Assembly: GCA_945888435.1 (NCBI GenBank)
Contig: CAMCZW010000008.1
Location: 2,235-66,234 of the forward strand
Length of the DNA: 64,000 bases
Reading direction: 5' to 3'
From: a bacterium UBP8_UBA817
GTDB taxonomy: Bacteria; Margulisbacteria; Marinamargulisbacteria; SXXA01; SICP01
The position numbers were made by a program, and so were the translations under genes. Under the pieces are notes generated by a model. That model was not told the origin of the DNA. It searched no databases and saw only the letters and a program-made list of their open reading frames with translations. Shown here one piece after another: positions 1-40,172 of this stretch; position 1 is the stretch's first letter, and each line of letters opens with the position of its first letter.

Positions 1-185
1 GGGGGTGGTGGATCGCTTACGCTTTATCTCTTAACGCGAATCCCGATAGGCGAAATGATTAAGAGCTAAATGAAATCTAGGAGAGGATGGCCGAAGCCAA
101 TACGATTGAAGACAGATTAGAACCTATTTTCGCCAAAAACGAAGGCTGGTGGGGGGGTCTTCTTCCTGGATTTATGTTCGGCTTG

Positions 186-3100
186 TTAAACCTCGCCACC
201 CACACCCTTAAACTTCTCAACGAAAGTGGCAATTCTTTGGAAAACACTTTGTTTTTTGCTTAAGTATTGCGGATTAAGCGGGCTTATTTTGGGAAGGATT
301 GCATTTAGCTCTGTGCCATTTTCACTGGCATATTCACGTTTTAATGATGCAGTTATATAACGCTTAGCGGCTTCTGTATTCAGATTTTCAGCACTAATTA
401 ATTCTTCTGCTTCACGTTGTTGTTCAGCTTGAGCAAAGGTAAAGAAAGCATCAATAATGCTGGCTTTGTCGAGAATGTTATCCAAGTTGGTTTGGTTAAT
501 AAAATCAACCAGCAAACTCTCTTTGGCGCGGTTGCCAAGGCTGGCACGAATCACCCGGCGTACATCTTCAACCAGTACTGATTTATCTTTAACCTTTTTA
601 TTGTTTTCAAAAATCAGTTCGAGAATGTAGTCCAGGTTGATCTCTTGTGACTTCAGCAAATCTACCTCAAAGACCACGTCATCCCAATCGATGGCGGATT
701 TTTCTTTTTCAGTGGCAGATTTTTCCCGACGCAGCCAATCGCGAATATCGTTGTAGGTTGAACGGTAGTCCTGAATCTGCCGCTCGGGGGGCATGGCGAT
801 CGCTTGCAGTGTGGCCAAGTCATCATCGTTTAAATAATGCTGCGCCTTAAATGCCTCAACCGCCTGCGGGTCGCTCATATCAACGCTTTGCAAGGCTTTC
901 AGGCTGGCGAATTCATCGTAGTTTTGCAGCACGTTCTCAACGCGCAAATATTCGCCGAACAGTTTCGCGAAGGCCTTTTTGTCCGATTCTTTTTCAATGG
1001 CAGAGGGATCAGGAAAGCGCTGCTCCAGCTCCCTCACAACCTCAACAAAGCCACGCCGTGCCTCACCGGTAAGCAAATCGGTAAAGCCTTCCATGTATTC
1101 CTTGTAGCTTTTTTCCAGCACCACGTTTTTGGTGTTCGTATCGCCAAACAGGGTAATGGCATCAATTGTGGCCTGCTCCAAATCGCGAAAGGTGACGATA
1201 TTGCCAAAGGTTTTGGTGGCATCGTAAATACGGTTGGTACGCGAATAGGCCTGCATCAAACCGTGATAGCGCAGGTTTTTATCCACAAACAAGGTGTTCA
1301 GCGTAGGCGCATCAAAGCCGGTCAGAAACATACCCACTACAATCAGCAAGTCGATTTCCTTGGCTTTTACTTGTTTAGCCAGATCGCGGTAATAGTTTTG
1401 AAAACCATTGCTATCCACACTGAAGTTGGTTTTAAACATCGCGTTATAGTCGGCGATGGCCGCGCTTAAAAACTCTTTGGCGCTGGTGTTCATGGCTGAG
1501 ACATCAAAGCTTTCATCCAGAATATCGCCAACGGCATCTTGTTCTTCATTGGCAGCAAATGAGAAGATGGTGGCCACTTTCAGTGGCTTGCCGCTGCCTT
1601 CTTGTAATTTTTTCAAAGACTCGTAATACAGCTTGGCGGCATCCACACTGCTCACGGCAAACATGGCATTAAAGCCTTTTGCACCAGCCTGCAGGCGATG
1701 GGTTTTTTGCCGGAAGTTATTCAAGATGTACTGCGAAATCTCCCGAATACGGTCTGGGTGAAGCAAAGCTTGTTTGTTTTCCGCCGCGTTGAGTTTTGTC
1801 TCATCCAACTCGGTTTCAAGCGCTTTGAACTGCGGGCGCACATCGTTGTAATCGACCTTGAACTTCAACACCTTTTCGTCACGGATAGCATCGGTGATGA
1901 CATACGAATGCAACTCGCGGCCAAACACGCTGGCAGTGGTTTCTGCACCGAGGGCGTTTTGCGGGAAGATAGGTGTGCCGGTAAAGCCAAACTGATAAAA
2001 CTTTTTAAACTTCTTCTTCAGGGTCTTCTGTGCCTCACCAAACTGGCTGCGGTGACACTCATCAAAAATAAACACCACTTGCTTGTTGTAGATGGGCAGG
2101 TCACATTCACCTTTCATCAGGTTGTTGAGCTTCTGGATGGTGGTGACGATGATTTTGTTGTCGTCCTTATCCAGATTGCGCTTAAGCCCGGCGGTGCTGT
2201 CAGAGCCATTCACACTATCGGGTGAAAAGCGCTGGTATTCCTTCATGGTTTGGTAATCCAGATCCTTACGATCCACCACGAAGAACACCTTGTCGATAAA
2301 ATCCAGCTCAGTCGCCAAACGTGCCGCTTTAAAACTGGTCAGGGTCTTGCCAGAACCTGTGGTGTGCCAGATAAAGCCACCGCCCTCAAGAGCGCTCCAG
2401 CTTTTGGCTTGATAGGCACTTTTGATCTTCCACAAAATGCGCTCGGTGGCGGCAATCTGGTAAGGTCGCATCACCAGCAGCGTGTCGCTCACATCAAACA
2501 CCGAATAATGCAGTAGCACATTGAGCAAGGTGTTTTTCTGGAAAAACGTGGCGGTAAAGTCCTTCAGGTCTTTGATCAGGCCGTTATCAGCCTTCGCCCA
2601 GTTCATGGTGAAGTCGAAGCTGTTTTTGTTGCGCGCCGTGGTGTTGGCAAAATAACGGCTATCGGTGCCATTGGTGATCACAAACAGCTGTAAATACCTG
2701 AATAAAGAATGCTCGCTATTAAAGCTCTCTTTGCTGTAGCGGTGCACCTGATTAAAAGCTTCGCGAATCGCCACACCGCGTTTCTTCAGCTCAACCTGCA
2801 CCAAGGGCAGGCCATTGACCAAAATCGTCACGTCGTAGCGATTGGCGTGGCTGCCGGTTTGCTCAAACTGCTTGATCACTTGCACCTTGTTGCGGGCAAT
2901 GTTCTTTTTGTCCAATAGGTAAATATTCTTAATGCGGCCATCGTCAAACACAAAATCGTAAATATAGTCATCATGGATTTTGCGGGTTTTATCGACGATG
3001 CTATCGCTGGGTTTATCCAGATAGGTTTCTACAAAACGCAGCCACTCGCCGTCAGCAAATTGCATATTGTTCAGGGCTTGCAGCTGCTCGCGCACATTGG

Positions 3101-3341
3101 CGATCAGTTTGTCGGGCGTGTTTAAATCGGGGACATAGCCATAGCCCTGATTCTGTAAATCCTGAATAAATTCCCGCTCCAAGTCATATTCGCTTTGGTA
3201 GCTTTCTCTAACCTTCCATTCCTTGGTGTATTTATCCAGCACGATGAAGCTATTTGATTCGGCGATGGGCGTGGTGTAGTTAATCATTCTTTTTGCCTTT
3301 TTTTGATAACTGCAATTGCCTGGCGTTTTGCGCGCTGACAA
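186..3341 (-). CDS. hsdR: Type I restriction enzyme R subunit (HsdR), SF2 helicase/endonuclease
   Basis: 1051-aa ORF with Walker A (GSGKTLT) and DEAH-like (FDECHRS) helicase motifs, length and architecture typical of HsdR. It is the last gene of the hsdM..hsdS..hsdR operon. The true start may be the internal Met at 3287 (MINYTT, preceded by AAGG), giving an 8-nt overlap with the upstream gene. Confidence 0.93.
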
Positions 3342-4134
3342 CCTGTTTACCCGTTTCTGCTTCTAATTTCAGCTTGGCTTCTTTCGCAACACCGCCCCCA
3401 CGCTTTGCGACATCCTCGTGTTCCGCAAACGACTGCGGGTTCACGACTTCTGAAATCTCTTTGGTGGACAACTCTGCCAGCATATTCATGATCAATTCTT
3501 TATTGGTCATGTTGTCACGCAGGTTTTCTTTTTTAAGCCCTTTATATTGCTTGTATTCCTTAGCGGTTTTCCCTGCCCATGTTTTGTAAATCACATCAGT
3601 CAAAAAGGCGAATTCACCACCTTCTTGCAAGCCGTGTTTTTTCCATTCATCGGTTAATTCTTTGCGGATCTCTATGCTTTTTAGCCGTTGGTTAATCCAG
3701 TTATCCGAATAACCCAGCCGCTTATAATCCAGCATGGCTTGTTCGATGGATAACTCAGGGTCTTGCAGCTGATTCAGTCGTTGATTTGCCACCTCAGCCA
3801 GCCACAGCTTGAAGGGTTCGGCTTTTTTAGATGGAATGGATTGGATGATTCTGAAAACCTGCTGGGTATCCAACACATCGGTGAGGCGTTGCTTTCCGTC
3901 AGGGGCTTCGAGCTTCAACTGGTTAGTGACACTAACCACTTCACTACCTTCTTGTTTAAGCTTGTTTTTTAGCCATTTCCAGTAGTTTCTGGCCTTGGCA
4001 TATTCCGTCTGGTCGGTGAGTGCCGCCACCACGTCCAAGGCAGAAAACCACCATTTTTCCTCAGCCTCATCCCAAGCTGTCCGAACATGGATGGATTCAA
4101 ACAGCTGTAGTTTGACTTTATGATCATTTTGCAT
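3280..4134 (-). CDS. Bro-N domain / DNA-damage-inducible protein D (DinD)-like protein
   Basis: 284-aa ORF between hsdS and hsdR. The mid-region ...[30 protein letters not shown]... resembles the E. coli DinD segment ...RKGLKKNQKILDHMGSTELAANLF..., recalled from memory. It overlaps hsdS by 11 nt and hsdR. Confidence 0.5.
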
Positions 4135-5380
4135 CGGCAGCCCCCTTGAAACTCAGCAGCAAATCGCGGTAATACTCGTATTGCTTTTGCCGCAAGGCAA
4201 TTTCACGAGGCAAGCCTTCGGTGATGGAGTTGGTGAGGGCATCGAATTTATCGAGAACTGACGCGATACGCTCCTGTTCAGAAAGATCAGGAATAGGTAT
4301 TGGCAAAGTCTTAATAATATCTGCATTCAAATTGCTAACCGAACCACTGTTAATTTTCCCTGCCCAGTAGTTCTGCACATTATTCGACGAAAGATAGTGA
4401 TAGAGGTAGTCTGAATTTAGCTTTTTCCGGTAGCCACTGATCGAGGCCCATCCGTCATGAATAGCTCCACTTATACCAAGGATGTAGGGTCGCCCAAAAC
4501 TCATTGAGTTGGACAAAATAAAATCACCTGCATTCAAAATACGTGACTTTCTTGAGCCTTCTAATGTGACCTTTTGAGCTGTGCTATTTACATATTTTGA
4601 GCCTGGCGAAGTATCACCAATTTTAATCCAAGGCACGCCATCCTCATCATCAGTTATGTATTTTGCGATTGGTCTAGGCGATGCTCCGCGTTGCACGTTA
4701 GCAACCTCCCCCAGCGTCTTCCACTCCACTTCCCCTTCTTCAAAACTCAACAACTGATCGCGATAGTAGTTGTATTGTTTTTTGCGGGCGGTCAGCTCGG
4801 CGGTCAGCTCGGCGGTCAGCTCGGCGGTCAGCTCGGTGAAGGCGTCCAGAATGCGGACGATTTCGGCTTGGATTTCAAGCGATTTTTTGGGGTTTTCTGG
4901 GCAGGGGATGGGGATTTGGAGTTTTTTCACAACCCCTGCATTTATATTTGTCTGAGAGCCAGCCCCGAGTGATTTGATATGTTCATATTGGCTAGACAAG
5001 AAATGGAACACATAACGGTAGTTTGCAACATTCTCATTAAGTTGAATATTTGCACACGCCTGATTTGTAGTCATTGGAATTTTGTTAATCCCAATTTTTC
5101 CAACAGTCGCCCCATACATCGCAACAATCACACAGTTTTCAGGTATCCAATTTGCGCTGGAATTTTTCAAGCCAGCTTCTGTGATTTTTACGCCTGTATC
5201 CCAAATTTCTCCAAAATCAACTTCTTGAGTCCGTAACCAAGGAATGTCGCCACCATAATATTCAGGCACACCAGTTCTCGGAGTGCCGCCAGACGAAATT
5301 TTTTTAGCAACCTCTCCCAACGCCTTCCACTCCACCTCAGCGCCATCCAGCAGCTTGTCCATAAAGTTCACGCTGCTCAT
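4124..5380 (-). CDS. hsdS: Type I restriction-modification specificity subunit (HsdS), two target-recognition domains
   Basis: 418 aa. It has a central conserved spacer with (LTAE)x4 and a C-terminal conserved ...ALRQKQYEYYRDLLLSF, both typical HsdS conserved repeats. It sits between hsdM and hsdR. Confidence 0.9.
   Translation of the reverse strand: MSSVNFMDKLLDGAEVEWKALGEVAKKISSGGTPRTGVPEYYGGDIPWLRTQEVDFGEIWDTGVKITEAGLKNSSANWIPENCVIVAMYGATVGKIGINKIPMTTNQACANIQLNENVANYRYVFHFLSSQYEHIKSLGAGSQTNINAGVVKKLQIPIPCPENPKKSLEIQAEIVRILDAFTELTAELTAELTAELTARKKQYNYYRDQLLSFEEGEVEWKTLGEVANVQRGASPRPIAKYITDDEDGVPWIKIGDTSPGSKYVNSTAQKVTLEGSRKSRILNAGDFILSNSMSFGRPYILGISGAIHDGWASISGYRKKLNSDYLYHYLSSNNVQNYWAGKINSGSVSNLNADIIKTLPIPIPDLSEQERIASVLDKFDALTNSITEGLPREIALRQKQYEYYRDLLLSFKGAADAK
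4778..4826 (-). repeat. 12-bp tandem repeat (gcggtcagctcg) x4 inside hsdS, encoding (LTAE)4 in the central conserved region
   Basis: Four perfect direct 12-bp copies are seen directly in the sequence. They are in-frame and lie in the TRD1-TRD2 spacer. Plus-strand GGQL-repeat ORFs are shadows of this repeat. Confidence 0.9.
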
Positions 5381-6417
5381 GCCTCATCCCCTTCCAGCTC
5401 ACGCTCAATCTGCTCAATGCTGGGCAGGTTAGTCTGCAGCGGCTCGGGTAAGGATTCCAGCAGTTTGTATTCGGCAATGCCCATGGGTTGGGTTTTATCG
5501 CCCAAGGCGTATTCCGCCACCACTTTGTTTTTACTCTTGCACAAGAGCAGGCCGATTGTGGGGTTGTCGTCCTCGTTCTTCACTTGCCGGTCTACGGCGG
5601 TGAGGTAAAAGCCCAGTTGCCCCAAATGCTCAGGCTTGAACTTGCCGCCCTTGAGTTCAATCACCACATAGCAGCGCAATTTCAGGTGATAAAACAGCAG
5701 ATCGATAAAAAACTCATCGCCCCCGACTTCTAGCAGCACCTGCCGCCCGACGAATGCAAAGCCCGCTCCCAACTCCAGCAGGAATTCAGTGACATGTTTG
5801 ACCAGTGCATGTTCAACCTCGAGCTCCTGCGCTTCGTCGGTTAAGCCAAGAAAGTCGAAACGGTAAGGGTCTTTTAGTGATTCACGCGCCAGATCGGACT
5901 GGGGTTTAGGCAAGCTGATATCAAAGTTGGTGACGGCTGAGCCGCTGCGCTCCAGTAAGCGGGTTTCGATTTGCATAACCAGCACATTACGCGACCAGTT
6001 GTGCTCAATGGCCTTTGCAGCGTACCAGCGGCGCGCTTCAGGGCTGGATAACTTGTCCAGTAGTGCTAATTGGTGATACCACGGCAATTGTGCAAGCACC
6101 GCTTGCACAAATTCGGCATCGGGCCAAGCCCCCGCAAAAGCGCGCATGTACTTGAGGTTGCGCGGCGAAAATCCTTTCATGTCGGGGAATGTGGTGCGTA
6201 GATCGTGCGCCAAGCGTTCAATGACTTTGGCGCCCCAGCCTTGGTCTGCTTGGCGAGCCAAAATGGCATGGCCAATTTGCCAGTAAAGCGCAATGAGTTC
6301 ATGGTTTACCGCCAGTGTTGCCCGTTGCTGGGCATGGTGAACTTTTATCTTCAACTCGACTAACCAATCGGTATAGCCTTCTGGCGCTTGTATCAGTGAA
6401 ATGGGCTTATCGCTCAC
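5377..6417 (-). CDS. DUF1016 (YhcG-like) PD-(D/E)xK nuclease-family protein
   Basis: 346 aa. C-terminal ...FFIDLLFYHLKLRCYVVIELK... fits a D..(D/E)xK nuclease core. This family commonly sits in Type I RM loci. It overlaps hsdS by 4 nt. Confidence 0.6.
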   Translation of the reverse strand: MSDKPISLIQAPEGYTDWLVELKIKVHHAQQRATLAVNHELIALYWQIGHAILARQADQGWGAKVIERLAHDLRTTFPDMKGFSPRNLKYMRAFAGAWPDAEFVQAVLAQLPWYHQLALLDKLSSPEARRWYAAKAIEHNWSRNVLVMQIETRLLERSGSAVTNFDISLPKPQSDLARESLKDPYRFDFLGLTDEAQELEVEHALVKHVTEFLLELGAGFAFVGRQVLLEVGGDEFFIDLLFYHLKLRCYVVIELKGGKFKPEHLGQLGFYLTAVDRQVKNEDDNPTIGLLLCKSKNKVVAEYALGDKTQPMGIAEYKLLESLPEPLQTNLPSIEQIERELEGDEA

Positions 6418-7023
6418 CTACAGCTCCTCAGTCTTAAATTCGCTATAACCTTCGTAGTAATAGCTCACATCAATCCCCTTCATAAACAGCGCGCGGTCAT
6501 CAATCTGGTCGGTGAGGGCTTGTTTGATCAGGGCGTTTATTTCTAGGTCTTTGACCACGCTGCGTTGCATGGCGGAGAGGTAGTCGTCTTTATCCACGGC
6601 ATTCCAGTCGACTACCTGCTGGATTTCTTTTTTAAGCATCAGATCGAGCCAAATCCGTGTGGCGCGGCCATTGCCTTCGCGGAAGGGGTGGGCGATATTC
6701 ATCTCGACATATTTTTCGATGATTTGGTCAACATTGCTTTGCGGCATGGCGTCTATATGTTTTATCGAGGCTTCAAGGTACATGACCCGCGCAAAAGCGA
6801 TTGTGCCTTTGGCGATATTCACGTCGCGGATTTTTCCCGCAAAGGCGTAAATTTCTTCAAACAAATAGGCGTGGATAAAGACAAGTCCGGCAAATTTACC
6901 CACCTCAGCCTTGTTAATATTGCCAGAATCAAAAAGTTGTTTGGCTTTTTGTTTGCTGATTTTTTCTTCGGCGCGGGCCAGTTCGATTTGATCGGTGATG
7001 TTGAGCTTGTTTGCCAGAATCAT
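6418..7023 (-). CDS. fic: Fic/Doc family protein (AMPylation-type toxin/effector fold)
   Basis: Canonical Fic motif HPFREGNGRATR is present, in a 201-aa protein. Confidence 0.85.
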   Translation of the reverse strand: MILANKLNITDQIELARAEEKISKQKAKQLFDSGNINKAEVGKFAGLVFIHAYLFEEIYAFAGKIRDVNIAKGTIAFARVMYLEASIKHIDAMPQSNVDQIIEKYVEMNIAHPFREGNGRATRIWLDLMLKKEIQQVVDWNAVDKDDYLSAMQRSVVKDLEINALIKQALTDQIDDRALFMKGIDVSYYYEGYSEFKTEEL

Positions 7024-8057
7024 GCTAATTCTCTTTTTTTATCAAGTGTTTTTATCGCTTTATCAAAATCAGATTCATAAAGCCTATCCTGCACAATGCG
7101 GTATTTTTCAAACTCACTTTCGGCATGGGCTTTGGCGATTTCAGCACTCACTTTACCTGCGTCTTGCAAAACCTCCCGATCCGTTGCCGCTATAAAACGA
7201 TTTAAACGATCCTCCCAGTCGGCCATGGTCATGGGTATCTTTCTTAACGCCATGTCTTCTGCCAAATCGAGATAAGCACTCACTAGTCTTTGCAGTTGGG
7301 CAAGCTCAGGGTCGGTTAGGTAATTTTTCGCAATACTGACGTCAAATTTTTGAATCTTACCCTGGGGTGCATCTTTCCATGAGGTTAAGCCCATATTGGT
7401 TTTTTCGGCATCGCAGCGGTTGTGAACCACTTCGGCGGCGGTTTGTCCGTGAATCGCCCAGTGCAATTTATTTTGTACGATCGCAAAGAATCTTTTGGTT
7501 GCAGTGGCTGTTACATCATAGTCAATCGCAGTGGCATAGATGTCGGTAATCTTTTGATAAAACTTACGCTCGCTGAGCCGAATTTCGCGAATACGCGTAA
7601 GTTGTTCTTCAAAATATTTTTTGCCGAGGATACTGCCATCATTTTTAATGCGCTCATCGTCCATAACATAGGCTTTGATGGTGAATTCTTTAATGACGAT
7701 GGTTGCCCATTTACGAAACTGTACTGCACGCTCAGAGTTGACTTTGTAGCCAATTGCGATGATGGCCGAGAGGCTATAGTGCTGGGTGTTATAGTTTTTG
7801 CCGTCTTGGGCAGTTATTCGAAAATTTCGAATAACTGATTCTTTTTCCAGTTCACTATCTGAGAATATTTTTTTTAAATGGTAGTTAACGGTGTGGGTTT
7901 CGACATCGTACAAAACGCCCATCATTTTTTGGCTAAGCCATACATCTTCATCCGCATAGACAGCTTCGACACCGCTCTCGCCGCTGGCTGCGATAAAAGT
8001 TAAATACTCTGCTGCGGACGAGCGAATAGTGGGTACTGTTAGCTTCTTTTTGCTCAT
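7020..8057 (-). CDS. rhuM: RhuM family virulence/defence-island protein
   Basis: 345-aa protein with an N-terminal region typical of RhuM (..[14 protein letters not shown].. ..FRKWATIV..). It overlaps fic and hsdM by 4 nt each. Confidence 0.7.
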
Positions 8058-9604
8058 GATGTGCCCCCTTCAATTTGAGCCACGATGGCGTCGATATCTT
8101 TACGAAGCTGGTCGATCTTAGCAACGGTGGTTTTCAGCGCGGCATTGAGCTGGGTAATAGCCACCACCTCGCGATTGTCCTTGGCTTCGACGTAGCTGCT
8201 GACCGATAGGTTGTAATCGTTAGCAGCGATGGCTTCAAGGCTGACCGATTTGGCAAAGTGCTCAACATCCGCTTTGCTATCGAAGGCCTGCATGATCTGC
8301 TCGATGTGCGTATCGGTAAGCGTGTTGTTATTGGTTTCTTTTTTAAACAGACCACTGGCATCAATAAACTGGGTTTTAGTATCTGTTTTGTGTTTGGATA
8401 GCACGAGAATCGTGACGGCAATGGTGGTGCCAAAAAATAGGTTTGGAGCGAGCGCAATCACGGTTTCGATATAGTCGTTATCAATTAAATACTGGCGTAT
8501 TTTTTGTTCGGCTCCGCCACGGTAAAAAATACCGGGGAAGCAAACAATGGCGGCGCGGCCTTTGCTGGAAAGGTAACTGAGCGCATGCAGCACAAAGGCA
8601 AAGTCAGCTTTGGATTTTGGTGCTAATACACCCGCAGGGGCAAAGCGGTCATCGTTAATCAGGGTGGGGTCGTCTGCGCCTATCCATTTTACCGAGTAAG
8701 GCGGGTTGGAGACGATGGCATCAAAGGGCTTGTCATCACCAAAATGCGGATGTCGCAGCGTATCACCCAGCTGGATATTGAACTTGTCGTAGTTGATGTT
8801 GTGCAAGAACATGTTCATCCGCGCCAGGTTGTAGGTGGTGTGGTTGAGCTCCTGACCAAAAAAACCGTCTTCAATAATGTGGGCGTCAAAGTGTTTTTTG
8901 GCTTGCAGCAGCAGGGAGCCGGAGCCGCAGGCAGGGTCATAAATCTTGTTGACGCTGGTTTGCTTGTGCATGGCGAGCTGCGCAATTAGCTTGGACACGT
9001 GTTGCGGGGTGAAAAACTCGCCACCGGATTTACCGGCATTGGCGGCGTAGTTGGAGATGAGGAACTCATAGGCATCGCCAAACAGGTCGATGTGGCTGCC
9101 CTCAAAGTCACCAAAATCCAGCCCGGCCACGCCTTTGAGCACGGCGGCCAAGCGGGTGTTTTTGTCGCCAACGGTATTGCCGAGCCGATTGCTGGTGGTA
9201 TCAAAATCGGCAAACAGGCCTTTAATGTCACCTTCTGATGGGTAGCCGTTGGCTGAGCTTTCGATGGCCGCAAAGATGGCGGCGAGGTCGGTACTCAAGC
9301 TTTGGTTGGTGTTGGCGCCTGCGGCAATGTTGGCAAATAACTGGCTCGGGTAGATGAAATAGCCCTTGGTTTTAATGGCATCGTCTTTGATTTCCGGGGT
9401 GATGACCTTATCGCCGAGTTGCGCATAGTTGATGCTGTCATCACCGCCTTCAATATAGCTGGCAAAGTTTTCGCTGATAAAGCGATAGAACAAGGTGCTG
9501 AGTACGTATTGCTTGAAATCCCAGCCATCCACTGAACCGCGGACGTCGTTGGCGATTCGCCAGATTGCAGCGTGAAGTGCTGATCGTTCTTGTTCTTTAT
9601 TCAT
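8054..9604 (-). CDS. hsdM: Type I restriction-modification N6-adenine DNA methyltransferase (HsdM)
   Basis: 516 aa. It has the NPPYS catalytic motif (..[11 protein letters not shown]..), a SAM-binding region (DPACGSGS) and an HsdM N-terminal domain. Confidence 0.95.
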
Positions 9605-9605
9605 A

Positions 9606-11876
9606 TCAGCCTAACGGGATTCGCGTTCTTACAAAATTAAGCGCCGATCCCGCCTTAAACCAGTCAATCTGAATATCGTTATAAGTATGCAAAATAGGGA
9701 TCATATCCAAAGTTCCATCCGCATGTCGTGCAATCACTCTCAACTGAGAGGCTGGAGAAAATGTTTCTAATCCTTCAATATCCAAAAGATCATCTTCCCT
9801 AATTTTGTCGTAATCCGTCGGATCCGCAAAAGTCAGGGCCAATAATCCTTGTTTTTTCAAATTGGATTCATGAATTCGCGCAAAAGATTTCACAAGCACC
9901 ACTCTCACCCACAGGTAACGGGGCTCCATAGCCGCATGCTCACGAGAAGACCCCTCTCCATAGTTCTCATCACCAACAACCACAGATCCGCGTCCTTTCG
10001 ACTTATAAAGCCGTGCCGTATCAGGTACCGGTCCGTAAGTCCCTGTCACCTGATTTTTAACCGAATTCGCTTGGCCATTAAATGCATTCATCGCACCAAT
10101 AAACATATTGTTAGAAATATTATCCAAGTGTCCGCGATAGGCCAGCCAAGGCCCTGCCATCGAAATATGGTCAGTCGTGCACTTTCCTTTCGCCTTAAGT
10201 AACAACGGCAATCCACGATAATGGGCAGACTCATACGCATCAAACGCATCAAGTAATTGCAAGCGATCCGATGTCGGACTCACCACAACCTGGATATGTC
10301 CACCGTTCGCAGCTGGTGCAACAAACCCCGCATCCTCAACATCAAAACCCCGTGTCGGAAGCTCATCCCCAGAAGGCGGCGCAAGCTTAACCTGTTGCCC
10401 AGATTCCGTCGTAATCGTGTCTGTCATTGGATTAAATAAAAGTGACCCTGCAAGCGCAAACGCAGTTACAATTTCTGGAGAAGCCACAAACGCACATGTA
10501 TTCGGGTTACCATCATTACGTTTCGCAAAGTTACGATTAAATGAAGTCATAATGGAGTTTTTACGATTAGGATCCGTCGTATGACGTGCCCACTGACCGA
10601 TACAAGGTCCACACGCATTCGCCAACACAACACCGCCAATCTGCTCAAATACACCGAGTATGCCATCGCGCTCTGTTGTAAATCTCACCATTTCTGATCC
10701 TGGAGTAATCGTAAATTCACTTTTGGCTTTAACGCCTTTATCCAAAGCTTGCTGTGCAACAGATGCCGCTCTCGCCATATCTTCATACGACGAATTGGTA
10801 CAAGATCCGATCAATCCAACTTCTAGTTTTTCAGGCCATCCATTTTGGTGCACCGCGTCTTTAAACTGAGATAATGGAGTCGCTAAATCGGGTGTAAAGG
10901 GTCCATTGATATACGGTTCAAGAGTCGATAAATCAATTTCAATCACTTGATCATAGTAGTCATCAGGAGTCGCAACGACTTCGGGATCCGGGCGTAAATG
11001 TTCTCTGATTCCATTGGCCAATGCCGCCACTTCCGCACGTCCGGTGGCGCTTAAGTAGTCCGCCATTCGATCATCAAATCCAAATACAGAAGTTGTGGCC
11101 CCAATCTCCGCACCCATATTACAAATGGTCCCTTTACCCGTACATGACAAGGCATCTGCACCGTCGCCAATATATTCAACAATCGCGCCAGTACCGCCTT
11201 TCACAGTCAAAATACCCGCGACTTTCAAAATAACGTCTTTAGGAGATGCCCAACCAGACAACTTCCCAGTCAATTTAACACCAATAAGTTTAGGAAATTT
11301 AAGCTCCCAAGGAAGTCCGGCCATCACATCCATCGCGTCCGCACCGCCAACCCCAATCGCAAGCATTCCAAGCCCACCCGCATTCGGAGTATGAGAGTCC
11401 GTACCAATCATTAATCCACCCGGAAACGCATAATTCTCAAGAACAACTTGGTGGATAATCCCCGCACCTGGCTTCCAAAATCCGATGCCATATTTATTAG
11501 AAACAGAGGCTAAAAAATTATAAACTTCTTTGTTATCTTTATTCGCAGTTTCCAAATCGGCTTTTGCCCCAACTTTCGCTTGGATTAAGTGATCACAATG
11601 CACAGTCGATGGGACCGACACTTTATCTTTACCGGCTTGCATAAACTGAAGCAACGCCATCTGAGCAGTCGCATCCTGCATGGCCACACGGTCAGGAGAA
11701 AAATTAACATAGTCTTTACCTCGGCCAAATGGACGAAATGGAAATACTTCCTGCAAATGGCTATATAAAACTTTCTCCGACAACGTCAAAGGACGACCCA
11801 ATAATTCGCGAGCCGCAGCCACCTTTTTAGGTAACTCCTGATACACTTTTTTAATCATATCCAAATCAAATACCAT
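9606..11876 (-). CDS. acn: Aconitate hydratase, mitochondrial-type (~750 aa)
   Basis: The ORF extends to 11954, but the Met at 11876 is preceded by AAGGAG. Aconitase family motifs are present (..[12 protein letters not shown].., ..[10 protein letters not shown].., C-terminal swivel domain). Its stop lies 1 nt from the hsdM start codon. Confidence 0.9.
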
Positions 11877-11965
11877 TTTAAGCTCCTTAACTGAACACCA
11901 GGGAATATAGATAATGTAAGCGTATCGATTATAACGCCGCAGAAAAGAAAACAAAATAGATTAAA

Positions 11966-12253
11966 GTGAAATATTTACTTGACAACTTGATAAGAAAAGA
12001 AAATAATAAATATATGGATAAAACAGAATTAAGTGTCGGCGAATTAAAAGCTCATTTTTCAGAAGTCCTAGAAAAAGTACAACAAGGACACCAGATTACG
12101 ATTCTATTTGGAAAGCAAAAAACACCCGTCGCAGAAATCATTCCCTTAACACAAAAAAAATCTCCAATAAGATTAGGGTCCTTATCAAAAAAAGCATCTT
12201 TCAAAATAAATCCAGGATTCAAAATGACCGAAGACGAATTTCTAAATTCATGA
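11966..12253 (+). CDS. Type II antitoxin (Phd/YefM-like), partner of the downstream PIN toxin
   Basis: A small ORF sits immediately upstream of the PIN-domain gene and overlaps it by 4 nt (ATGA). The real start may be the internal Met at 12014. Confidence 0.55.
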   Translation: MKYLLDNLIRKENNKYMDKTELSVGELKAHFSEVLEKVQQGHQITILFGKQKTPVAEIIPLTQKKSPIRLGSLSKKASFKINPGFKMTEDEFLNS

Positions 12254-12648
12254 AAATCCTAATTGATACCCACATATTATTATGGGCAATTTTTGACCCA
12301 TCCAAGCTCTCTAAAAAAGAAAGTGCTATTATAAAAAATCCAGAAAATATCATTCTGGTAAGCGCAGCTTCATTATGGGAAATCAGCCTCAAATATTCAA
12401 AAGGTCAGCTCAACTTAGTCAGGTGTATTCCCACTGCACTACCTTCGATTCTTGTTGAAGACGGTTTTGAGCTAATTGATCTAACCCCTCAAGAAACAGC
12501 CGGAAGTTTTATTCTCCCAAAAACCACACATTCGGACCCATTCGATCGCATGATCATTTGGCAGGCAATATTTCGGCAAATACCCCTACTAACCAGAGAT
12601 GAAAAATTAAAAGAATATACAAACTATGGGCTTCAGCTCGCCTTCTAA
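12250..12648 (+). CDS. vapC: PIN-domain ribonuclease toxin (VapC-like)
   Basis: 132 aa with an N-terminal MKILIDTHILLW.. PIN signature and acidic residues. It is paired with the upstream antitoxin. Confidence 0.8.
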   Translation: MKILIDTHILLWAIFDPSKLSKKESAIIKNPENIILVSAASLWEISLKYSKGQLNLVRCIPTALPSILVEDGFELIDLTPQETAGSFILPKTTHSDPFDRMIIWQAIFRQIPLLTRDEKLKEYTNYGLQLAF

Positions 12649-28832: not shown

Positions 28833-31800
28833 ATGAAAATAAAATCAATCATTTGGAGTTGTTTTTTAATCTGTTTCCTTTGCAGTCCGATTACTGCAAG
28901 TGTAGAGCTCCAAGTGTCTGGAAGCCTTCCGCCTATTAACGGAACCTTTATTTCAGGTAGTCATGCCGCAACAATTGGGATTTATAAAGGCACTACAGGC
29001 ACCCCCGTATGGTCAGAGCCAATTGCCAGCGTAACATTCAGAAACGGAATGTTTACAACCATTATCGGAAAAGTCACGCCCCTTGAAGCAAGCTATTTAT
29101 ACGTCACAAATCCACATATTGGCATCACTCTCACAGACACCCCTCATACAATTCAATTTGTTAAACTCACCGCATCACCATACGCATTCAAAGCCGCGGT
29201 AGCAGAGCGCGCCCGTAAAGTCTCAGCCAATGTCATCACCGGAACAATGGTTTCAACAGCAAACTTATCAAAAGGGCTATATGTTAAAGCAAGTAGCCAA
29301 AATTACTCCCTATTCGTCAATGCAAATAGCGTAGGGATTGGGAAATCAAATCCAACCACCAAGCTCGATATAAACGGAATCATCAATGCCGACGGATTTA
29401 GAATTAGAGGAGAAGATATCGCAGGAGCTCTCTCCTGGAAACCTAACACCGTCATCACCCAAAATATTTACTTTAATACAGGCCGGGTAGGAATCGGAAC
29501 CTCCATCCCCCGCTACACATTAGAAGTTGCAGGCACCATTAATGCCTCTGAATTATTTACCAAATCTAGAAAAATCTCATCCACATTAGATTGGCAACGA
29601 TCTCCAGTCGCATCAGAAAATTTGTATTTTATTAACCTGGATAAAAAGGTCGGTATTGGAGTAGAAAATCCAAGATCAAAACTTCATGTATTAAACGAGA
29701 TTAGAGTATCCACCAACGTCTATCCTGCGGCGGTTGGTATGATTAGAAGATCCTCTGCAAATAATGAGATTGAAGGTTATACCACCAGGGGCTGGTTACC
29801 CCTCACCGGCGTACGAGGCGGCGGCCAAAAAGATCGTCTAACTTTTTTTACAACTCCTAAAAATATTAGCTCTAGCCCATTATTTCTTCAAAATCATACT
29901 AATTCTTTTGTAGGAGTTGGAGTCTCCGCCCCCAACTCAACACTTCAGATCAAAGAAACCAATTCTAATAAAAAATTATTTCAAGTAACTTCAACACAAA
30001 ATAAAACATTGCTAATGGTTGGCTCTACAGGCAACGTTGGGATCGGAACCCCTACTCCAAACCAAAAGCTAAAAGTAATTGGCAGCCTCGCTGCTGACGA
30101 TATCACACTAAACGGCCTATCTATCCTTCTCGCAGTATCAAAAGACTCTGTATGGCTATTAAACGCAAGTCATAATGTCTACTATATGTTAGGGAATGTC
30201 GGGATTGGCCAAAACAGACCTGAAAGCCTTTTAGAAATTGCCCAAAGAACCAACTCAAATGATGACCCCGCCATTACATTAACCAACGGTAGAAATGTCA
30301 GCTATACCATGGGAGTCGATAACGATAAGCCAGATACATTTAGAGTAGAGTTTGGAACCACGCTTGGATCAACATCTCCATTATTTGTCGCAAAAAATAA
30401 CTTTTTAGGTATTGGCTTAGAAACCCCCTTAGCGCCCCTTCATATCAACGGAAAAATAGGAACTGTTTTTAGCGGGACATTTTACGGAGTCCCAGAAGAA
30501 ACTGCACAAGAACTCGATCCGTTAACCGGTGATGAGCTTATCCCGACTCTTCCAAAAGAAGGTCCTGGGACTCGATTTTTATGGCAACCTCAAAGGGCAA
30601 TATTCAGAGCTGGCCAAGTGGAATCAACATCCCCTTACCTAAGAGGAGAAAATTGGGATAATGAAAACTCAGGCAAATTTTCAAACGCATTTGGACTAAA
30701 TAGTATCGGTAGCGGTAATTACACCACCGTCGCCGGTGGAAAAAATAATATCGGCAGTGGCGCCTATTCGACCGTAGCTGGTGGAGAAAATAACATTTCA
30801 GAAGGAGACTTTTCACTTGCTGTCGGTAAAAATGCGACCGCACTTCACGAAGGATCTTTTATTTTTCTCGACTCATCAGCAGCCCCAACATCAACTATTA
30901 AACACAGTCAATTTTTAGTATTCGCGTCACGAGGTATGGGGATTGGAACAACCCTAACCACGGTAGACGGCATCAGATCAGGCTTAACTATTAAACGAGA
31001 TAAAAGTAGTGGGAACATTCTAAGATTTATCGGTTACCCCACAGAAAATACAGGAACCGCCCTATCATCATCTGGAAATATGATTATCGGATCACTCACT
31101 CCGGGAAACGCCAAATTATCCATAATGGGGGCAATGAACATCGGCGGAACACCAAGAACCCCCTCAGGCAATATTATTACGGCCAATATTAAGCTCAGCG
31201 TCAACCGTGACACCCCCGGTCTTTACAATACCTTCATAAAATCGATTGAAGCCATCACAACACCTGGCATGGCCATTTTAAGTGGCCCAGGGCACATCGG
31301 CATGGCCATTATTCCAAATATGTTTACAGCAGCAGACCTATTAACCGGACTTCAAGTAGGAAGCGGAAGTGTATTAGCTAGTGAGTACATTCAACCCGAC
31401 GGAACCCGCCTTGGAAAAGAAGCCGTCATTGTGTGGTTAGAAAATTCAGACGGAGATGTTTACTTCGTCTCTGGAAACACAGGAATTGGGATGGCATCAC
31501 CAAATAGTATGTTGGAACTATCTAATATCGGGAATACATTGTTTGCAAACCCACAAAATCCGGCAATTAGCTTCACCTCCTCACCCATTAGCTACAGTAT
31601 AGGGGTCAAAAGATCCGGAAACTCAGCACTCCGTATCATTAACGGCATCAATCTAACGACAGACACACCAGCATTTGCAATCCATGATAATAAAATCGGG
31701 ATTAAAACAGATACCCCGCTCGCCATGCTCCATGTCAACGGAAACGCAATTTTTAGAAGTGGCCTTGCTGTTGGAACCACCAATCAACAAGCCAATCAAT

Positions 31801-34800
31801 TGACTGTCCCTAGCGTTATGACCCGAGGCCTTAATATCAGAGGCGACGTCGTCACCTCTAGCGGAGACAAATGGAGCATAACTGGCAATACAGTCTACAA
31901 ATCATTACTTGATCCAGTAGGGATTGGAACAAGCACTCCAAGAACTGACCTTGAAGTCATTGGAATAGTCTCTGCAAACAGTTTTGTAGTTAAAAACCAA
32001 TTCGATGTTTTAGGGAATACCAAAGTCAATCGAATTGATTTCAATCTCGACGAATCTGAATTTAGATTTGAAGTACAAAATGAAAAACTATTTTTGGATG
32101 ATGTTCCTCTATCCGATATTTTATCGAGAGGGTTACCATCCGATACCAGCATTGGCCCGATCGTCATTTGGGTAGTAGATCCAACTCGAGATACTGATCA
32201 AATATTAAGCGAAACCGACATGATCTGGTATTCAGAAACCCCAAGAAGAATTGGCACTTTAGTCTCATCTCATAACATCAATATCGGAAATACCATAAAA
32301 GACTCAAGCACCTCCTTCGAAAAAACAATCCAAGTTAAAGTAGGCACCCAAAGCATACTTGATGGCCTCAGTTTACAGGGCAATATCACTCACGACGGAA
32401 CTCTCTCTCATTCTAAAAATTTCACGCTTAGATCAAGCAGATTAGTAATTGATGAAAGATGGTCAACACCGAGCACGACCAATGTTCAATATGCAAATCA
32501 TATATTTGATATCTACGGAAAATCCGTCAAATTAAAAAATTCCAACGATGGCGCAGGTACCACTAGCATGATTAACCAAGCACCCGCCACGGGAGTTCGA
32601 GTCAACGTCAGCGATGTAAAACCTCAAACCAGCGCAGAAAAAGTATATTCAGCGATCTTTATGGGGGATGTCGGGATTAAAAAATTCCCAGCTGCAATCA
32701 CTGGTGAATATATATTAGACGTTAAAGGGATCGTTTCTGCAAATCGATTTATCATTTCAAAACGACTCAGAATCACTACCATCAATGCCAACAACATTCT
32801 ATTTATTAATGAAGCAACCAATGCAATTGGAATTGGGACATCAACCCCAACCACAACACTAGAAGTAAAAAATGAAATTAAAACAACACATCTTAGAGCA
32901 AGAAGCCTAGATACCAACAAATTAGTAGTCCAAACAAAAAGCTTATATGTCGATAATCAAAAAGTCGGTATGGGCACAATTACACCTGAAAGTTTACTCC
33001 ACATCAGTAAAACACTCACAAGAACACCCACTACTGAATATATTAACTTTTTAATCACAACCAACATCCAAACTACCCAAAAAAATAATAAAGGACTAGA
33101 AATCGTCTTAGCTACTAGCGCCAACTCCACATTTGGGACACTCACAACACCAAAAACGGTTAAAGGTATGGACATCACAATGGCCAATTTTAATAGTCAT
33201 GACAGTGGTCAAGTCATTGGGATTAGCGCCGAAACCAAAAGACAAAACAATGCCTACTCTGCAATTTTCAAAGGGGGTAACGTTGGTATCGGAGTTCCAA
33301 ATCCGGTTTACCCTCTCCAAGTATCAGGGACGATTCGAGCCGACAATGTCCTTCAAATCAACCTCTTAACCCGACAAGAAGCTGCGTCATTTAATTATCT
33401 AAATGTCCTTTCACCAACTGATAATACAATGATTTCAGGGACAGCAATTGCTCGAAATATGGTTGTTCGGAAAATGAAACAAAGCAGCCGTTCTTTTATA
33501 GTGAATAATCAAATTAATCTACCGACTATCACACTTCAGGTCACCGCGAATGGATTTCTTGAAGCCATCAATTTAATTGCAAGCGAAAGCATAAAAACAA
33601 AAGACATGACATCAAGCAGACTACTATCGGGTAAAGATGCTGAGTTTCAAGGCCTTACCATCGGGATTGCCGAAGAAACCTTAGACACAGTGAGAGTTCA
33701 GACAAGCGCAAATGCCACGCAAATAATCGCAGATAAAAGCATTCTCGCAGGCGCTGCAAAAATCAACTCAACTACGCTCAGTGTTCTTCCATATGGATTT
33801 GTCGGAATCAATGAAGCGACACCGAGAGCCATCCTAGACGTCAAACTCACTAACGACACGTTCGTTACACTTCATAACAATAGCAATACCGAAAATACCA
33901 GCGTCGGGATTATCTTCACCCCAGCATCCGCAACCAATATTCGAAATATTGGTTCAGGGATTGTTGCTATCAAGACAACCGCAGATATATCCGCTTCAGA
34001 ATTAGCGTTCATGACAAATCCAGTAAGTAACACACCTCAAGAGAGAATGAGGATGTTTAACGAGGGCGGTATCCGAATCGGAGCCCCGACGGTCTCTGAA
34101 ATAGCCCCTAAAAAGAGTCATCTGCTCGTTAAAGGCACCGCCTTAGTTTCAGGGATAAGTACGGTAAATCTATACGTAAACACAGAAACCATTCGAAACA
34201 ACGGTAATATTCGAATTGCAAACTCAATCAAAATTTTTGACCAAGATTTTATCGTCTCAAGAAATTTAATGACCAATACGGTTCAGCTTCAAGAATTATC
34301 AAGTCATCCCGTCACAAGCAATCAAAAATCAATTTTATACGCCTTCAATAATGGTAGCGCAGCCGGGATTTACTATGGAACCATATTAGAAGACGGAGTA
34401 TTCGCAACAGGAAATATGGAAGATACCTTTACCGGAACAAGAAAAGTAATCCCTGCATTTAATAGTAGCCACAGCATCGTCGATACCAATGTCATGCACT
34501 GGACTACAAGCAATATCAACTCGGTCGGTATTGGAAAATTAACCGTCGGATCTCATATCACATCAAACGTAGTGGGATCAGAAGCATCTCAGTTACATGT
34601 AGCAGGTGTCACCAACTCAGTATTAGCCGATAAAACCCTTAAAAAATTGCAATTAGAATTTAAAGACAGAAACACAGCAGGCTTCAGAACATTCCAAGGC
34701 TATAAATTAACCTCCACATTCGCCACATCAAAGTTAGCCGAAAATGAACAAATGATTGGATTAGACGTCAATCTCACTACACTTGCAAGTGAAAGTAGAC

Positions 34801-37800: not shown

Positions 37801-39209
37801 ATAGTGACGCAAATAAAATCAACTCACCCCTCACCCTATATTCAGGTACCTATCCAATCATCCCGATTACAACAGGGTCCGAAGACTCCATCCAAAAACA
37901 AGCCTTCCAATTTGTAGGCCGTGTCTTAATTAACGCAGGCCCAATTAGTGGAAGCGCACTCGATAATGAAGGCCCTGACAGCTATGGAAACCGAATGCCC
38001 GTATTAATTGTCAGCGGCGACATGAGAGTCGGAGCTAAAGTAAATAAAACTGAAACAGAATTTGCAGGCCAAGGAAAAAAACTAATTTTCTCAGGGGGAT
38101 ATCTTATCAATAGCAGTACGACCGATGGTAATAACGAAGATCCAATGCATATCACAAGAGTCAACACCAACGACCAGGCATCAGACCTGCAAATTTCGAT
38201 TGGAGAAGATCACACCATTAACAATGCCGCATTCAAAATAGGGGTTTCCGAAATAACCAATCAAAAATGGCATACATCCCTTGTCGCAAGAACTTTTTCA
38301 GAAACCTCAAATGCAAATACATCAATGGTCGGTATCGGATTAAACAATCCAACCACAGCCTTCTATGTTAAAGGGGTTGCCTCATTTAATATGAGACCGG
38401 ATGTCACCTCAAATACTACTACATTTGTAACCAACAACATCGCTCACCGCGCTCTCGTTCTCTTTGAAAACACGACTGCCAATGCCAACTCCCTTCTCAT
38501 CAAACATAGTGCGGAAGCTTCTAACGGGGTTGTCGGATCCGACTCTAATTTTATTAGCTTCAAATCATCAATATCACCCACAGGAGCACTGATCAGCTTA
38601 GGCGCAATTGAAGGGAACGGAGAAACAGGGGTTCAGCTCACATCTCCAGAAGCGGACTATGCAGAGTATTTACCAAAACTCTATAACAGCGAAGAAATTA
38701 GCTCAGGTCAAATTGTCGGGGTATTTAACGGCAAAGTCAGCAAGGTCACCAAGGGCGCAGATCAAATCATGGTCACCAGTGTGGCTCCAATTATCGCGGG
38801 TAACTGGCAAGGGGACACTAAAACCAAACAAGTCCTCGTCGCATTCCTAGGCCAAGTTCCAATTAAAATCAGAGGAGCAGTATCAGCAGGAGACTATGTC
38901 ATCCCATCAGGACTTAATGACGGGACTGGAATTGCCATTAAACCCAATGAAATCAACGCCAAAAATAGTGATCTCATTTTAGGCCGTGCCTGGGGGATTA
39001 ATTCAGTCGATAAAGTGAGCACCGTAACAGTGTTACTTGGATTAACAAAATCTCCAGCCCACACTATTTCGTCACAAAAAGTAGAAACATTGGCCGAAAA
39101 ATTAATCACTTTAGAAAGTAATATCGCTCAACTAGAAACAACATATCAAAATGTTCTTCAAAAACAACGTGATCAAATTAAACTTCTTAAAGCAAAGGTA
39201 AAAAAATAA
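28833..39209 (+). CDS. Giant secreted fibre-like repeat protein 1 (3458 aa): signal peptide, ~29 (V/I)GIGTxxPxxxLHVxG-core repeats, conserved C-terminal module + coiled coil
   Basis: It is an uninterrupted 10.4-kb ORF with a signal peptide ([22 protein letters not shown]|S). Repeat cores recur every ~40-150 aa (for example [34 protein letters not shown]). It is paralogous to the 40137 gene. Confidence 0.85.
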
Positions 39210-40147: not shown

Positions 40148-40172
40148 ATTTCCCACCATTAATTGGAGTCCC

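Follow-up and report, generated by a model that had tools for sequence, protein, structure and literature searches.

A foreign Type IC restriction-modification operon with four embedded accessory genes, probably inserted as a transposon-like unit in the 3′ end of a Bacteroidota aconitase gene

The systems closest to the locus reported here are the Type IC restriction-modification (RM) systems EcoR124I, EcoR124II and EcoprrI, together with transposon-like RM units. In EcoR124I and EcoR124II, the number of TAEL repeats sets the recognition-site spacer (N6 or N7), and PrrC, encoded within the Type IC system EcoprrI, is released once a phage has inhibited the restriction enzyme (PMC3874165). RM units that carry no transposase and have imperfect terminal inverted repeats and a short target duplication were described, with an empty-site check, by Furuta, Abe & Kobayashi 2010 (PMC2853133). 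In addition, PDC candidates have been defined by their embedding in Type I RM, BREX and DISARM loci (Payne et al. 2024, 10.1101/2024.01.29.577857), and the 145 PDCs are listed by those authors as candidates without tested function. Here, we describe a compact Type I RM operon of seven genes, four of them embedded accessory genes, located at the left end of a 64,000-nt stretch of contig CAMCZW010000008.1 (GenBank assembly GCA_945888435.1, positions 2,235 to 66,234 of the forward strand; hereafter the window). The operon lies in a foreign block in the 3′ end of acn, the aconitase gene of a Bacteroidota host, and this block was very probably inserted as a discrete, non-autonomous, transposon-like RM unit.

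Like EcoR124I, EcoR124II and EcoprrI, the locus has the order hsdM-hsdS-hsdR and an HsdR that bears EcoR124_C. Its hsdM and hsdR are 75-85% identical in nucleotide sequence to plasmid loci of Aeromonas, Azotobacter and Klebsiella, some of which are annotated as EcoR124II. The 12-nt TAEL repeat varies in copy number as it does between EcoR124I and EcoR124II, with 3 or 4 units here and 2 or 3 there. As in EcoprrI, the operon contains extra genes, but four are embedded rather than one and none of them encodes an anticodon nuclease or ABC ATPase. EcoR124 and EcoprrI are plasmid-borne or enterobacterial, whereas the window locus is chromosomal in a Bacteroidota; moreover, unlike theirs, its hsdM appears to be without a promoter and ribosome-binding site of its own and is placed behind a housekeeping gene. 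With the units of Furuta et al. (PMC2853133), the locus shares repeats unique to the unit, a short duplication verified by an empty site and the lack of an internal transposase. The verified cases in that study are Type II or IIG systems with 26-65-bp repeats and 8-bp duplications, whereas a Type I system with cargo, 19-bp repeats and a 3-bp duplication is found here, and the insertion in the window, unlike those units, rebuilds the end of its target gene. Embedded genes in Type IC operons, horizontal transfer of RM genes with deviant GC content at third codon positions (GC3) and transposon-like RM units are already documented, and current concepts are left unchanged by this locus. Its specific features are the four stacked candidates, a 19-bp/3-bp unit of unnamed family, a probable cross-phylum origin and a junction that rewrites the aconitase C-terminus.

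The foreign block was analysed as positions 33-9627 of the window, with 9628-64000 as the host background. Genes were identified with Pfam, NCBIfam and PADLOC, and their junctions were read directly from the sequence. The most informative comparison was with L109, the contig of P0125, whose aconitase is 97% identical to that of the window (91.2% at the nucleotide level) and in which the same convergent neighbour gene directly follows acn with no insert. This empty-site allele surfaced in a broader homologue search; clustering of acn, hsdM and rhuM at 90% identity had given one member each among 15 billion sequences. The empty site of L109 reads TTTGT[GAG]AGATAAAGCC or, written further, TTTGT[GAG]AGATAAAGCCCGGGCTTAATGA..., and the occupied site reads TTTGT[AAG]-AACGCGAATCCCGTTAGGC...GCCTATCGGGATTCGCGTT-[AAG]AGATAAAGCCCGCGC..., with its downstream flank also appearing as AGATAAAGCC. 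The insert is 9,595 bp long, ends in 19-bp terminal inverted repeats that match at 18 of 19 positions and is flanked by a 3-bp target duplication (Table 1). From the sequence, removal of 33-9630 was expected to give back an aconitase with the end ...ALNFVRDKARA*, a tail resembling those of 80 Bacteroidota aconitases, and the 97%-identical, 755-aa aconitase of P0125 ends exactly so. The repeat motif occurs as two copies only in the 64 kb, where 0.01 would be expected by chance. In a relative with an 85%-identical aconitase, whose synteny was judged from the gene table, acn is followed by convergent ~317-aa genes and then by gltX and a carbohydrate kinase, and the RM genes are absent. A preliminary description of this DNA had read the block as horizontally acquired and had proposed a comparison with related genomes; the empty site and the RM-free gene order beside acn in these two relatives bear that reading out. 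No transposase was found inside the insert, in which all seven open reading frames (ORFs) were identified.

The same description held that the island runs past the left edge of the window. Instead, both boundaries lie within it, at 33 and 9627. It is extremely improbable that the block is part of a larger, integrase-borne island continuing beyond the left edge. The window does open in mobile-element sequence (the end of an IS66-family element at 1-20), and RM systems often reside in integrative islands (PMC2853133). However, L086 and L095, which are contigs of the same population without the IS66-family element (L086 9925-9945), both read straight into the native flank. In L086, a U-box-like ORF, gltX, a carbohydrate kinase and phosphoglucomutase lie immediately left of position 21 in an order that matches the 85%-identical relative, and these left-flank genes adjoin acn in relatives without the RM block. 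An integrase was absent among the seven ORFs of the block, all accounted for by profile matches, and neither direct att repeats flanking the block nor a tRNA gene, by tRNA scan, was detected. The search for an integrase and flanking repeats that had been suggested earlier yielded a transposon-like signature instead, and L086, L109 and the gene order on the contig of P0127 already rule out the larger island.

The IS66-family end is a separate element and a neighbour of the island. It also reads GTAAGCGATCC... or GTAAGCGATCCACC..., its 20-mer is unique in the window, and it sits 12 nt left of the target duplication of the island, being present or absent among the population contigs. Contig L001 runs on to the left of the window into an IS66-type transposase ORF (L001 13288-14864).

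Another possible explanation of the 19-nt repeats is that they are the recombination sites of an invertible 9.6-kb segment, which would switch the operon relative to aconitase read-through. The inverted repeats exactly bracket the apparently promoter-less operon, the flipped state, as read from the sequence, would still give an in-frame aconitase end (…TRIPIGEMIKS*), and Type I RM loci often have programmed inversions near them (PMC9881135). Nevertheless, no recombinase gene lies in or beside the block, and a single orientation was seen in all the contigs retrieved, which came from several samples. Insertion accounts for the 3-bp duplication and the clean empty site, neither of which an invertase site requires. 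An invertible segment is, in our view, highly improbable.

The cassette could also have landed by illegitimate recombination in a pre-existing miniature inverted-repeat transposable element (MITE) of ~170 bp in the acn 3′ end, to which the repeats and duplication would then belong. Homology between the cassette and its relatives has exact limits, the hsdR stop on one side and a point 5 nt before the hsdM ATG on the other. No RM locus is related to the repeats or to the 134-nt spacer that separates the left repeat from the hsdR stop, and the spacer, with a GC content of 44%, is nearer to the host than to the cassette. No homologue of the spacer was found in the related RM loci (DNA homology stops at 186/187), in plasmids or in any fetched locus. 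On the other hand, searches of the collections and of about 90 kb of this genome turned up no further copy of such a MITE, and no contig had the repeats without the cassette. Strong Shine-Dalgarno-like sites are atypical of Bacteroidota translation, and the strong site AGGAGAGG in the spacer looks foreign to that phylum. Capture in a resident MITE is therefore unlikely. The predicted RNA fold of the region downstream of hsdR, including the spacer, was not significant (z = 0.36) and no terminator was found there.

A 58-codon ORF on the + strand (87-263), preceded by the ribosome-binding-like site AGGAGAGG, starts in the spacer and extends 78 nt into the hsdR 3′ end, opposite to it. It is called as a gene in public assemblies and has no family match. 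This ORF may be spurious, or it may be what remains of a gene that the original element has lost.

At the right junction, DNA homology to all the related RM loci, among them L104, L116 and L119, begins at window position 9609, and at the other end it stops at the hsdR stop (186/187). L104, L116 and L119, together with L105-L108, L112 and L113, were retrieved by exact-protein look-up. L104, L116 and L119 share the upstream sequence ...aagagtgagagcaagccATGTCTGAT(ATG/AGG)AATAAAG, of which the window retains CTGATATGAATAAAG alone, joined to the inverted repeat. L116 has AGG at the position of the window's hsdM start codon, so hsdM must start there at the upstream ATG, and the shared upstream sequence suggests the same ancestral hsdM start for this sub-family. 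The window's hsdM starts at Met4 of the ancestral ORF. Judged by this alignment, the cassette has lost its own hsdM promoter, its ribosome-binding site and the first four bases (ATGT) of the gene at the right junction. The hsdM start lies 1 nt past the aconitase stop (TGA T ATG), just as the preliminary description had stated, and this junction would leave the operon dependent on host signals. Scans of 1-12600 for sigma-70-type promoters and intrinsic terminators returned counts at or below the shuffled expectation, and the Bacteroidota-type pattern TTTG-N17-23-TAnnTTTG was absent near the junction.

Several points weigh against these readings of the insert and its expression. The repeat motif (AACGCGAATCCCGWTAGGC) had six matches in the JGI metagenome collection, all with unrelated flanks and attributable to chance, and no match in viral contigs; a plasmid search with window 21-190 also gave no match. 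Among all the fetched loci, the repeat and spacer were found only at this same locus. Since there is no second copy of either, no cognate transposase or family can be named, and that the unit is mobile is judged from a single insertion. On its inner side the right repeat appears to end just where the hsdM junction lies, so it may once have been longer and what is seen may be a truncated remnant. The present structure may also stem from a later deletion, such as loss of a transposase after insertion, and may not be the mobile form. As for expression, a lone TAnnTTTG box, TAATTTTG, lies on the minus strand at 9632-9639, 28 nt before the hsdM ATG in native aconitase codons (LNFV), and could serve as a cryptic promoter for the operon. 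The seven genes are predicted to be transcribed either with aconitase, as part of its transcription unit, or from a cryptic signal within the last aconitase codons, and to be translated by termination-reinitiation via the 1-nt gap and the overlaps. The frequency of the TAnnTTTG motif in the window equals that expected by chance, and the empty-site allele of L109 reads TAACTTTG where the window has the -7-like box. Around the sister cassettes L104-L106, a search for comparable inverted or direct repeats found only 9-mers.

A broader possibility is that the locus belongs to an undescribed family of non-autonomous cargo transposons that ferry whole promoter-less defence operons across phyla and gain their expression by plugging into the 3′ end of a constitutively expressed housekeeping gene. 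We consider such a family quite unlikely. If it exists, the element would rewrite the tail of aconitase and supply its stop, and the expression of restriction and of the four back-up effectors would follow that of a tricarboxylic acid cycle gene.

The composition of the block also sets it apart from the host. Its GC content is 47.6%, compared to 42.3% for the remainder of the window; values judged by eye in the preliminary description (48-50 against 42-44%) had the right direction and roughly the right size. GC3, which had been proposed as a check, was not uniform: it ranges from 0.44 to 0.62 in the seven island genes (mean 0.545) and is 0.376 +/- 0.048 in the 32 other ORFs, each of at least 150 aa (Mann-Whitney, p = 2.5e-6). 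In minus-strand genes, the GC3 skew of the coding strand is +0.17 to +0.67 in the host and -0.45 to +0.13 in the island. The island does not have the host GC3 skew, suggesting that the block is too recent in this replicon to have taken on the host mutational bias. The strand-linked GC3 skew of the host is itself unusually strong, with absolute values of 0.17-0.73 and a sign that stays constant per strand over 54 kb (9628-64000, ORFs of at least 150 aa). A strong skew of the same sign implies that this stretch lies on one replication arm with strong mutational asymmetry.

Protein and nucleotide identities point in the same direction. HsdM is 88-94% identical in amino acid sequence to proteins of Sideroxydans, Steroidobacter, Acinetobacter, Methylococcaceae, Geobacter and Nitrosomonas, and Fic is 85-97% identical to proteins of Gallionellaceae, Methylomonas, Sulfuriferula and Nitrosomonas. 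The nucleotide identity of hsdR to the hsdR genes of the related loci and of Aeromonas plasmids is 80-89%. The host aconitase, in contrast to these proteins, is at most 75% identical to that of any named organism, and all such organisms are Bacteroidota. Its GC3 is 0.392 with a host-typical skew, and its ratio of nonsynonymous to synonymous substitution rates (dN/dS) is 0.04. Judged from these comparisons, the cassette is closest to proteobacterial cassettes, which indicates a probable cross-phylum transfer of a Type IC cassette.

The gene order hsdM - rhuM - fic - DUF1016 - hsdS - Bro-N - hsdR, with all genes on the minus strand, was upheld by the Pfam, NCBIfam and PADLOC assignments, as was the earlier statement that every junction abuts or overlaps by 4-11 nt. 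The hsdM/rhuM, rhuM/fic and DUF1016/hsdS junctions are 4-nt ATGA overlaps, fic and the DUF1016 gene abut exactly (TAG GTG), hsdS and the Bro-N gene overlap by 11 nt, and the Bro-N gene and hsdR overlap by 8 nt (ATGATTAA). The last value takes the ATG at 3287 as the hsdR start; this gives a 1033-aa product, the same call as in public assemblies, and the TTG at 3341 in the ORF list was discarded.

HsdM (the N6-adenine methyltransferase), an HsdS with two target-recognition domains and an HsdR with a nuclease, an SF2 motor and an EcoR124-type C-terminus are all present. HsdR scored 682.6 bits with TIGR00348, 1512.8 bits with PADLOC REase_I and 2.2e-72 with EcoR124_C. HsdS matched PADLOC Specificity_I (3.5e-171), and its alignment to the related loci is limited to the conserved regions. 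A 12-bp repeat coding for TAEL is found in the central conserved region of HsdS, as in Type IC systems. By these features the core is an EcoR124-like, standard Type IC enzyme, and its activity is predicted: M2S would methylate host DNA and R2M2S would restrict unmethylated incoming DNA. Four TAEL units are present in the window and in contigs L083 and L088 and three in L001 (8465-8500) and L087, which come from other samples, the sequences being otherwise identical over 13.3 kb. Given the EcoR124I/EcoR124II precedent, this variation suggests that the population is polymorphic for specificity. Slippage in the 12-nt repeat would change the spacer of the recognition site, and the variation is predicted to be a population-level switch of spacer length of the EcoR124I/II type.

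The four accessory proteins match PDC-S05, PDC-S04, PDC-S02 and PDC-S13 nearly end to end (E 1e-100 to 1e-167). Their genes sit within a Type I RM locus and run in its direction, the arrangement by which the PDCs were defined. RhuM matched Pfam Virulence_RhuM (1.4e-106) and PDC-S05 (1.5e-148), with a dN/dS of 0.10 against both L104 and L119. Fic scored 296.8 bits with the NmFic equivalog NF046029 of NCBIfam, which has a cut-off of 230, and matched PDC-S04 (2.5e-100) and PDB entry 5nv5 (E = 4.9e-90); its dN/dS against L119 is 0.17. Its active site, HPFREGNGRATR, carries the HxFx(D/E)GNGRxxR motif, and its C-terminal SYYYEG has the (S/T)xxxE(G/N) form of the inhibitory helix, so it belongs to class III Fic. 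The class III proteins NmFic and EfFic share this active site and the SxxxEG inhibitory helix motif, and here the gene is embedded in an RM operon. The DUF1016 protein is covered over its full length by Pfam DUF1016_N (1.8e-63) and YhcG_C (7.1e-44) and matched PDC-S02 (5.4e-167); its region is 99.3% identical to L119 in nucleotide sequence over window 6512-5253, and its dN/dS of 0.30 is based on very few changes. The Bro-N protein matched Pfam Bro-N (1.2e-10), PDC-S13 (6e-122) and phrog_15286 (1.8e-103), and only the Bro-N domain and a weak DdrC-like C-terminal match were found in it. The genes of the cassette are under purifying selection (dN/dS 0.06-0.30), with full-length domain matches.

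The arrangement is the same guilt by embedding that defines the PDC set of PADLOC, but four candidates are stacked in one locus here, whereas the related loci retrieved carry 1-3. There is roughly an even chance that the accessory genes are second-line effectors co-transferred and co-expressed with the RM enzyme, by analogy with PrrC in EcoprrI. A PrrC/RloC-type system was looked for, and no AAA_13 or ABC ATPase gene was found at the locus; the sister loci L105-L108 carry an AAA_13 gene in slot 2. Without an ABC ATPase or anticodon nuclease, the PrrC analogy here is functional only. NmFic AMPylates GyrB. As a second-line effector, the Fic protein, for example, would halt an infected cell by AMPylating gyrase, and nucleic acid would be cleaved by the PD-(D/E)xK protein. 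Against an effector role, no demonstrated anti-phage activity was found for any of the four families in the literature covered. Single-sequence AlphaFold2 models were too poor for fold searches, with predicted local distance difference test (pLDDT) values of 34.5 for RhuM and 46.4 for Bro-N. A sequence search of solved structures gave no match for RhuM or DUF1016 and marginal DdrC matches only for the Bro-N protein. In those portions of the text and supplements of the Payne et al. preprint that could be searched, the PDC names do not occur.

The embedded genes may instead be selfish passengers, addiction modules (the Fic toxin) or regulators of RM establishment (Bro-N) that occupy permissive slots. 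The idea of a 'genomic sink' is discussed by Payne et al. (10.1101/2024.01.29.577857), cargo combinations vary freely among loci, phage genomes, too, encode homologues of Bro-N and DUF1016 (phrog_15286, phrog_22762), and the literature yielded no experimental defence data. However, all four genes are under purifying selection (dN/dS 0.10-0.30) and share the strand and tight packing of the hsd genes. There is also a strong statistical association with RM loci (PMC9881135, Table 2): RhuM and DUF1016 annotations are strongly enriched beside the genes that programmed inversions target, a gene set also enriched in the S and M subunits of Type I RM. The PrrC precedent comes from the same Type IC family. 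The passenger explanation is possible but, on this evidence, somewhat unlikely.

A common hsdM...hsdS...hsdR frame with two slots of differing cargo is found in the related loci, slot 1 lying between hsdM and hsdS and slot 2 between hsdS and hsdR; in the window, both are filled with genes of families that recur in Type I RM loci. The orders are M-RhuM-S-(RhuM/Fic fusion)-R in L104, M-S-AAA_13-BroN-R in L105-L108, M-75aa-Fic-S-88aa-BroN-R in L112, M-75aa-Fic-S-DUF559-R in L113 and M-Fic-RhuM-S in L116, and Aeromonas plasmids have M-DUF1016-S-RhuM-R and M-S-RhuM/Fic-R. The Bro-N gene thus occupies the same slot in L105-L108 and L112 as in the window. L119 (M-RhuM-Fic-DUF1016-S) has a slot-1 module identical in order to that of the window. 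The window and L119 show patchwork identity, ~100% in some stretches and ~80% in others, with mismatches per 150 nt switching between 0-1 and 17-36; the DUF1016 gene is 99.3% identical and the dS of rhuM is about 0.5. A mosaic of this kind is what frequent recombination between alleles of the cassette within the same freshwater samples would produce. Differences between strains or alleles are likewise clustered in short patches, at window 2763-2877, 3093-3162 and 3524-3601 relative to L086 (hsdR and the Bro-N gene) and at 7712-6513 relative to L119. Such clustering points to gene conversion or recombination between Type IC cassettes that share an environment.

With an occupied and an empty site, exact junctions and variants (IS66 element present or absent, three or four TAEL units), the locus is a well-resolved natural case of the movement of a defence operon between distant bacteria. 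A proteobacterial-type Type IC cassette appears to have lost its own expression signals in a Bacteroidota chromosome and to have become attached to a host gene. Four of the commonest embedded defence candidates are found in one operon, which makes it a convenient construct for probing RhuM, class III Fic, DUF1016 and Bro-N as RM-linked back-up. The coordinates of all features are given in Table 1.

Table 1. Features of the insert and its borders in the window
Feature	Position	Strand	Remark
Terminal inverted repeat of IS66-family element, GTAAGCGATCCACCACCCCC	1-20	-	Neighbour of the island, separate element
Left target-duplication copy (CTT on + strand, AAG on acn strand)	30-32	.	Occupied site compared with L109 empty site
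Left terminal inverted repeat, AACGCGAATCCCGATAGGC	33-51	+	95% complementary to 9609-9627
Spacer between left repeat and hsdR stop, 134 nt	52-185	.	GC 44%
hsdR, Type IC restriction subunit, 1033 aa	186-3287	-	HSDR_N, SWI2_SNF2, T1R_D3-like, EcoR124_C
Bro-N-domain gene, 284 aa, slot 2	3280-4134	-	Bro-N (Pfam), PDC-S13
hsdS, specificity subunit, 418 aa, two target-recognition domains	4124-5380	-	Two Methylase_S stretches
Four tandem copies of 12-nt unit GAGCTGACCGCC, coding (T)AEL repeat	4787-4834	-	hsdS central conserved region; translation FTELTAELTAELTAELTAR
DUF1016_N + YhcG_C PD-(D/E)xK nuclease-fold gene, 346 aa, GTG start, slot 1	5377-6417	-	Pfam, PDC-S02
Class III Fic AMP-transferase gene, 201 aa, slot 1	6418-7023	-	NCBIfam NmFic equivalog, PDC-S04
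RhuM-family gene, 345 aa, slot 1	7020-8057	-	Virulence_RhuM (Pfam), PDC-S05
hsdM, methyltransferase subunit, 516 aa	8054-9604	-	TIGR00497, 639.7 bits
TGA stop of chimeric aconitase	9606-9608	-	From ancestral hsdM codons 2-3 (TCT GAT)
Host aconitase, mitochondrial-type, 756 aa, tail replaced by insert sequence	9606-11876	-	TIGR01340, 1125 bits
Right terminal inverted repeat, AACGCGAATCCCGTTAGGC (minus strand)	9609-9627	-	Codes last six aconitase residues, TRIPLG
Right target-duplication copy, 3 bp	9628-9630	.	Occupied site compared with L109 empty site

The gene convergent with acn encodes tandem U-box-like repeats, for example CTDPIYEVPINKAIITPYGNTFDESAL (L086 9100-9928; L109 3917-4321), and had no Pfam model match. 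It is intact in the empty-site relative and frameshifted in the island-bearing lineage. These eukaryote-like U-box proteins suggest a host-associated lifestyle. Another reading of the left repeat, as what is left of the 3′ end of a second aconitase gene, convergent with the first and interrupted by the IS66 element, was ruled out by the U-box-like ORF that L086 has there.

A second presence/absence polymorphism beside the island is a VapBC-like pair, consisting of a PIN-domain toxin and a 79-88-aa partner, between aconitase and rsmA (window 11966-12648, + strand; L083 4195-4856). The pair is kept in the 85%-identical relative, and ~105 nt are found in its place in the 97%-identical relative (L109 1545-1652). 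Farther into the window, two giant ORFs lie on the + strand at 28833-39209 (3458 aa) and 40137-49814 (3225 aa). Neither contains a Pfam domain above the cut-off, and the sole match in the second is a sub-threshold bactofilin-like stretch.

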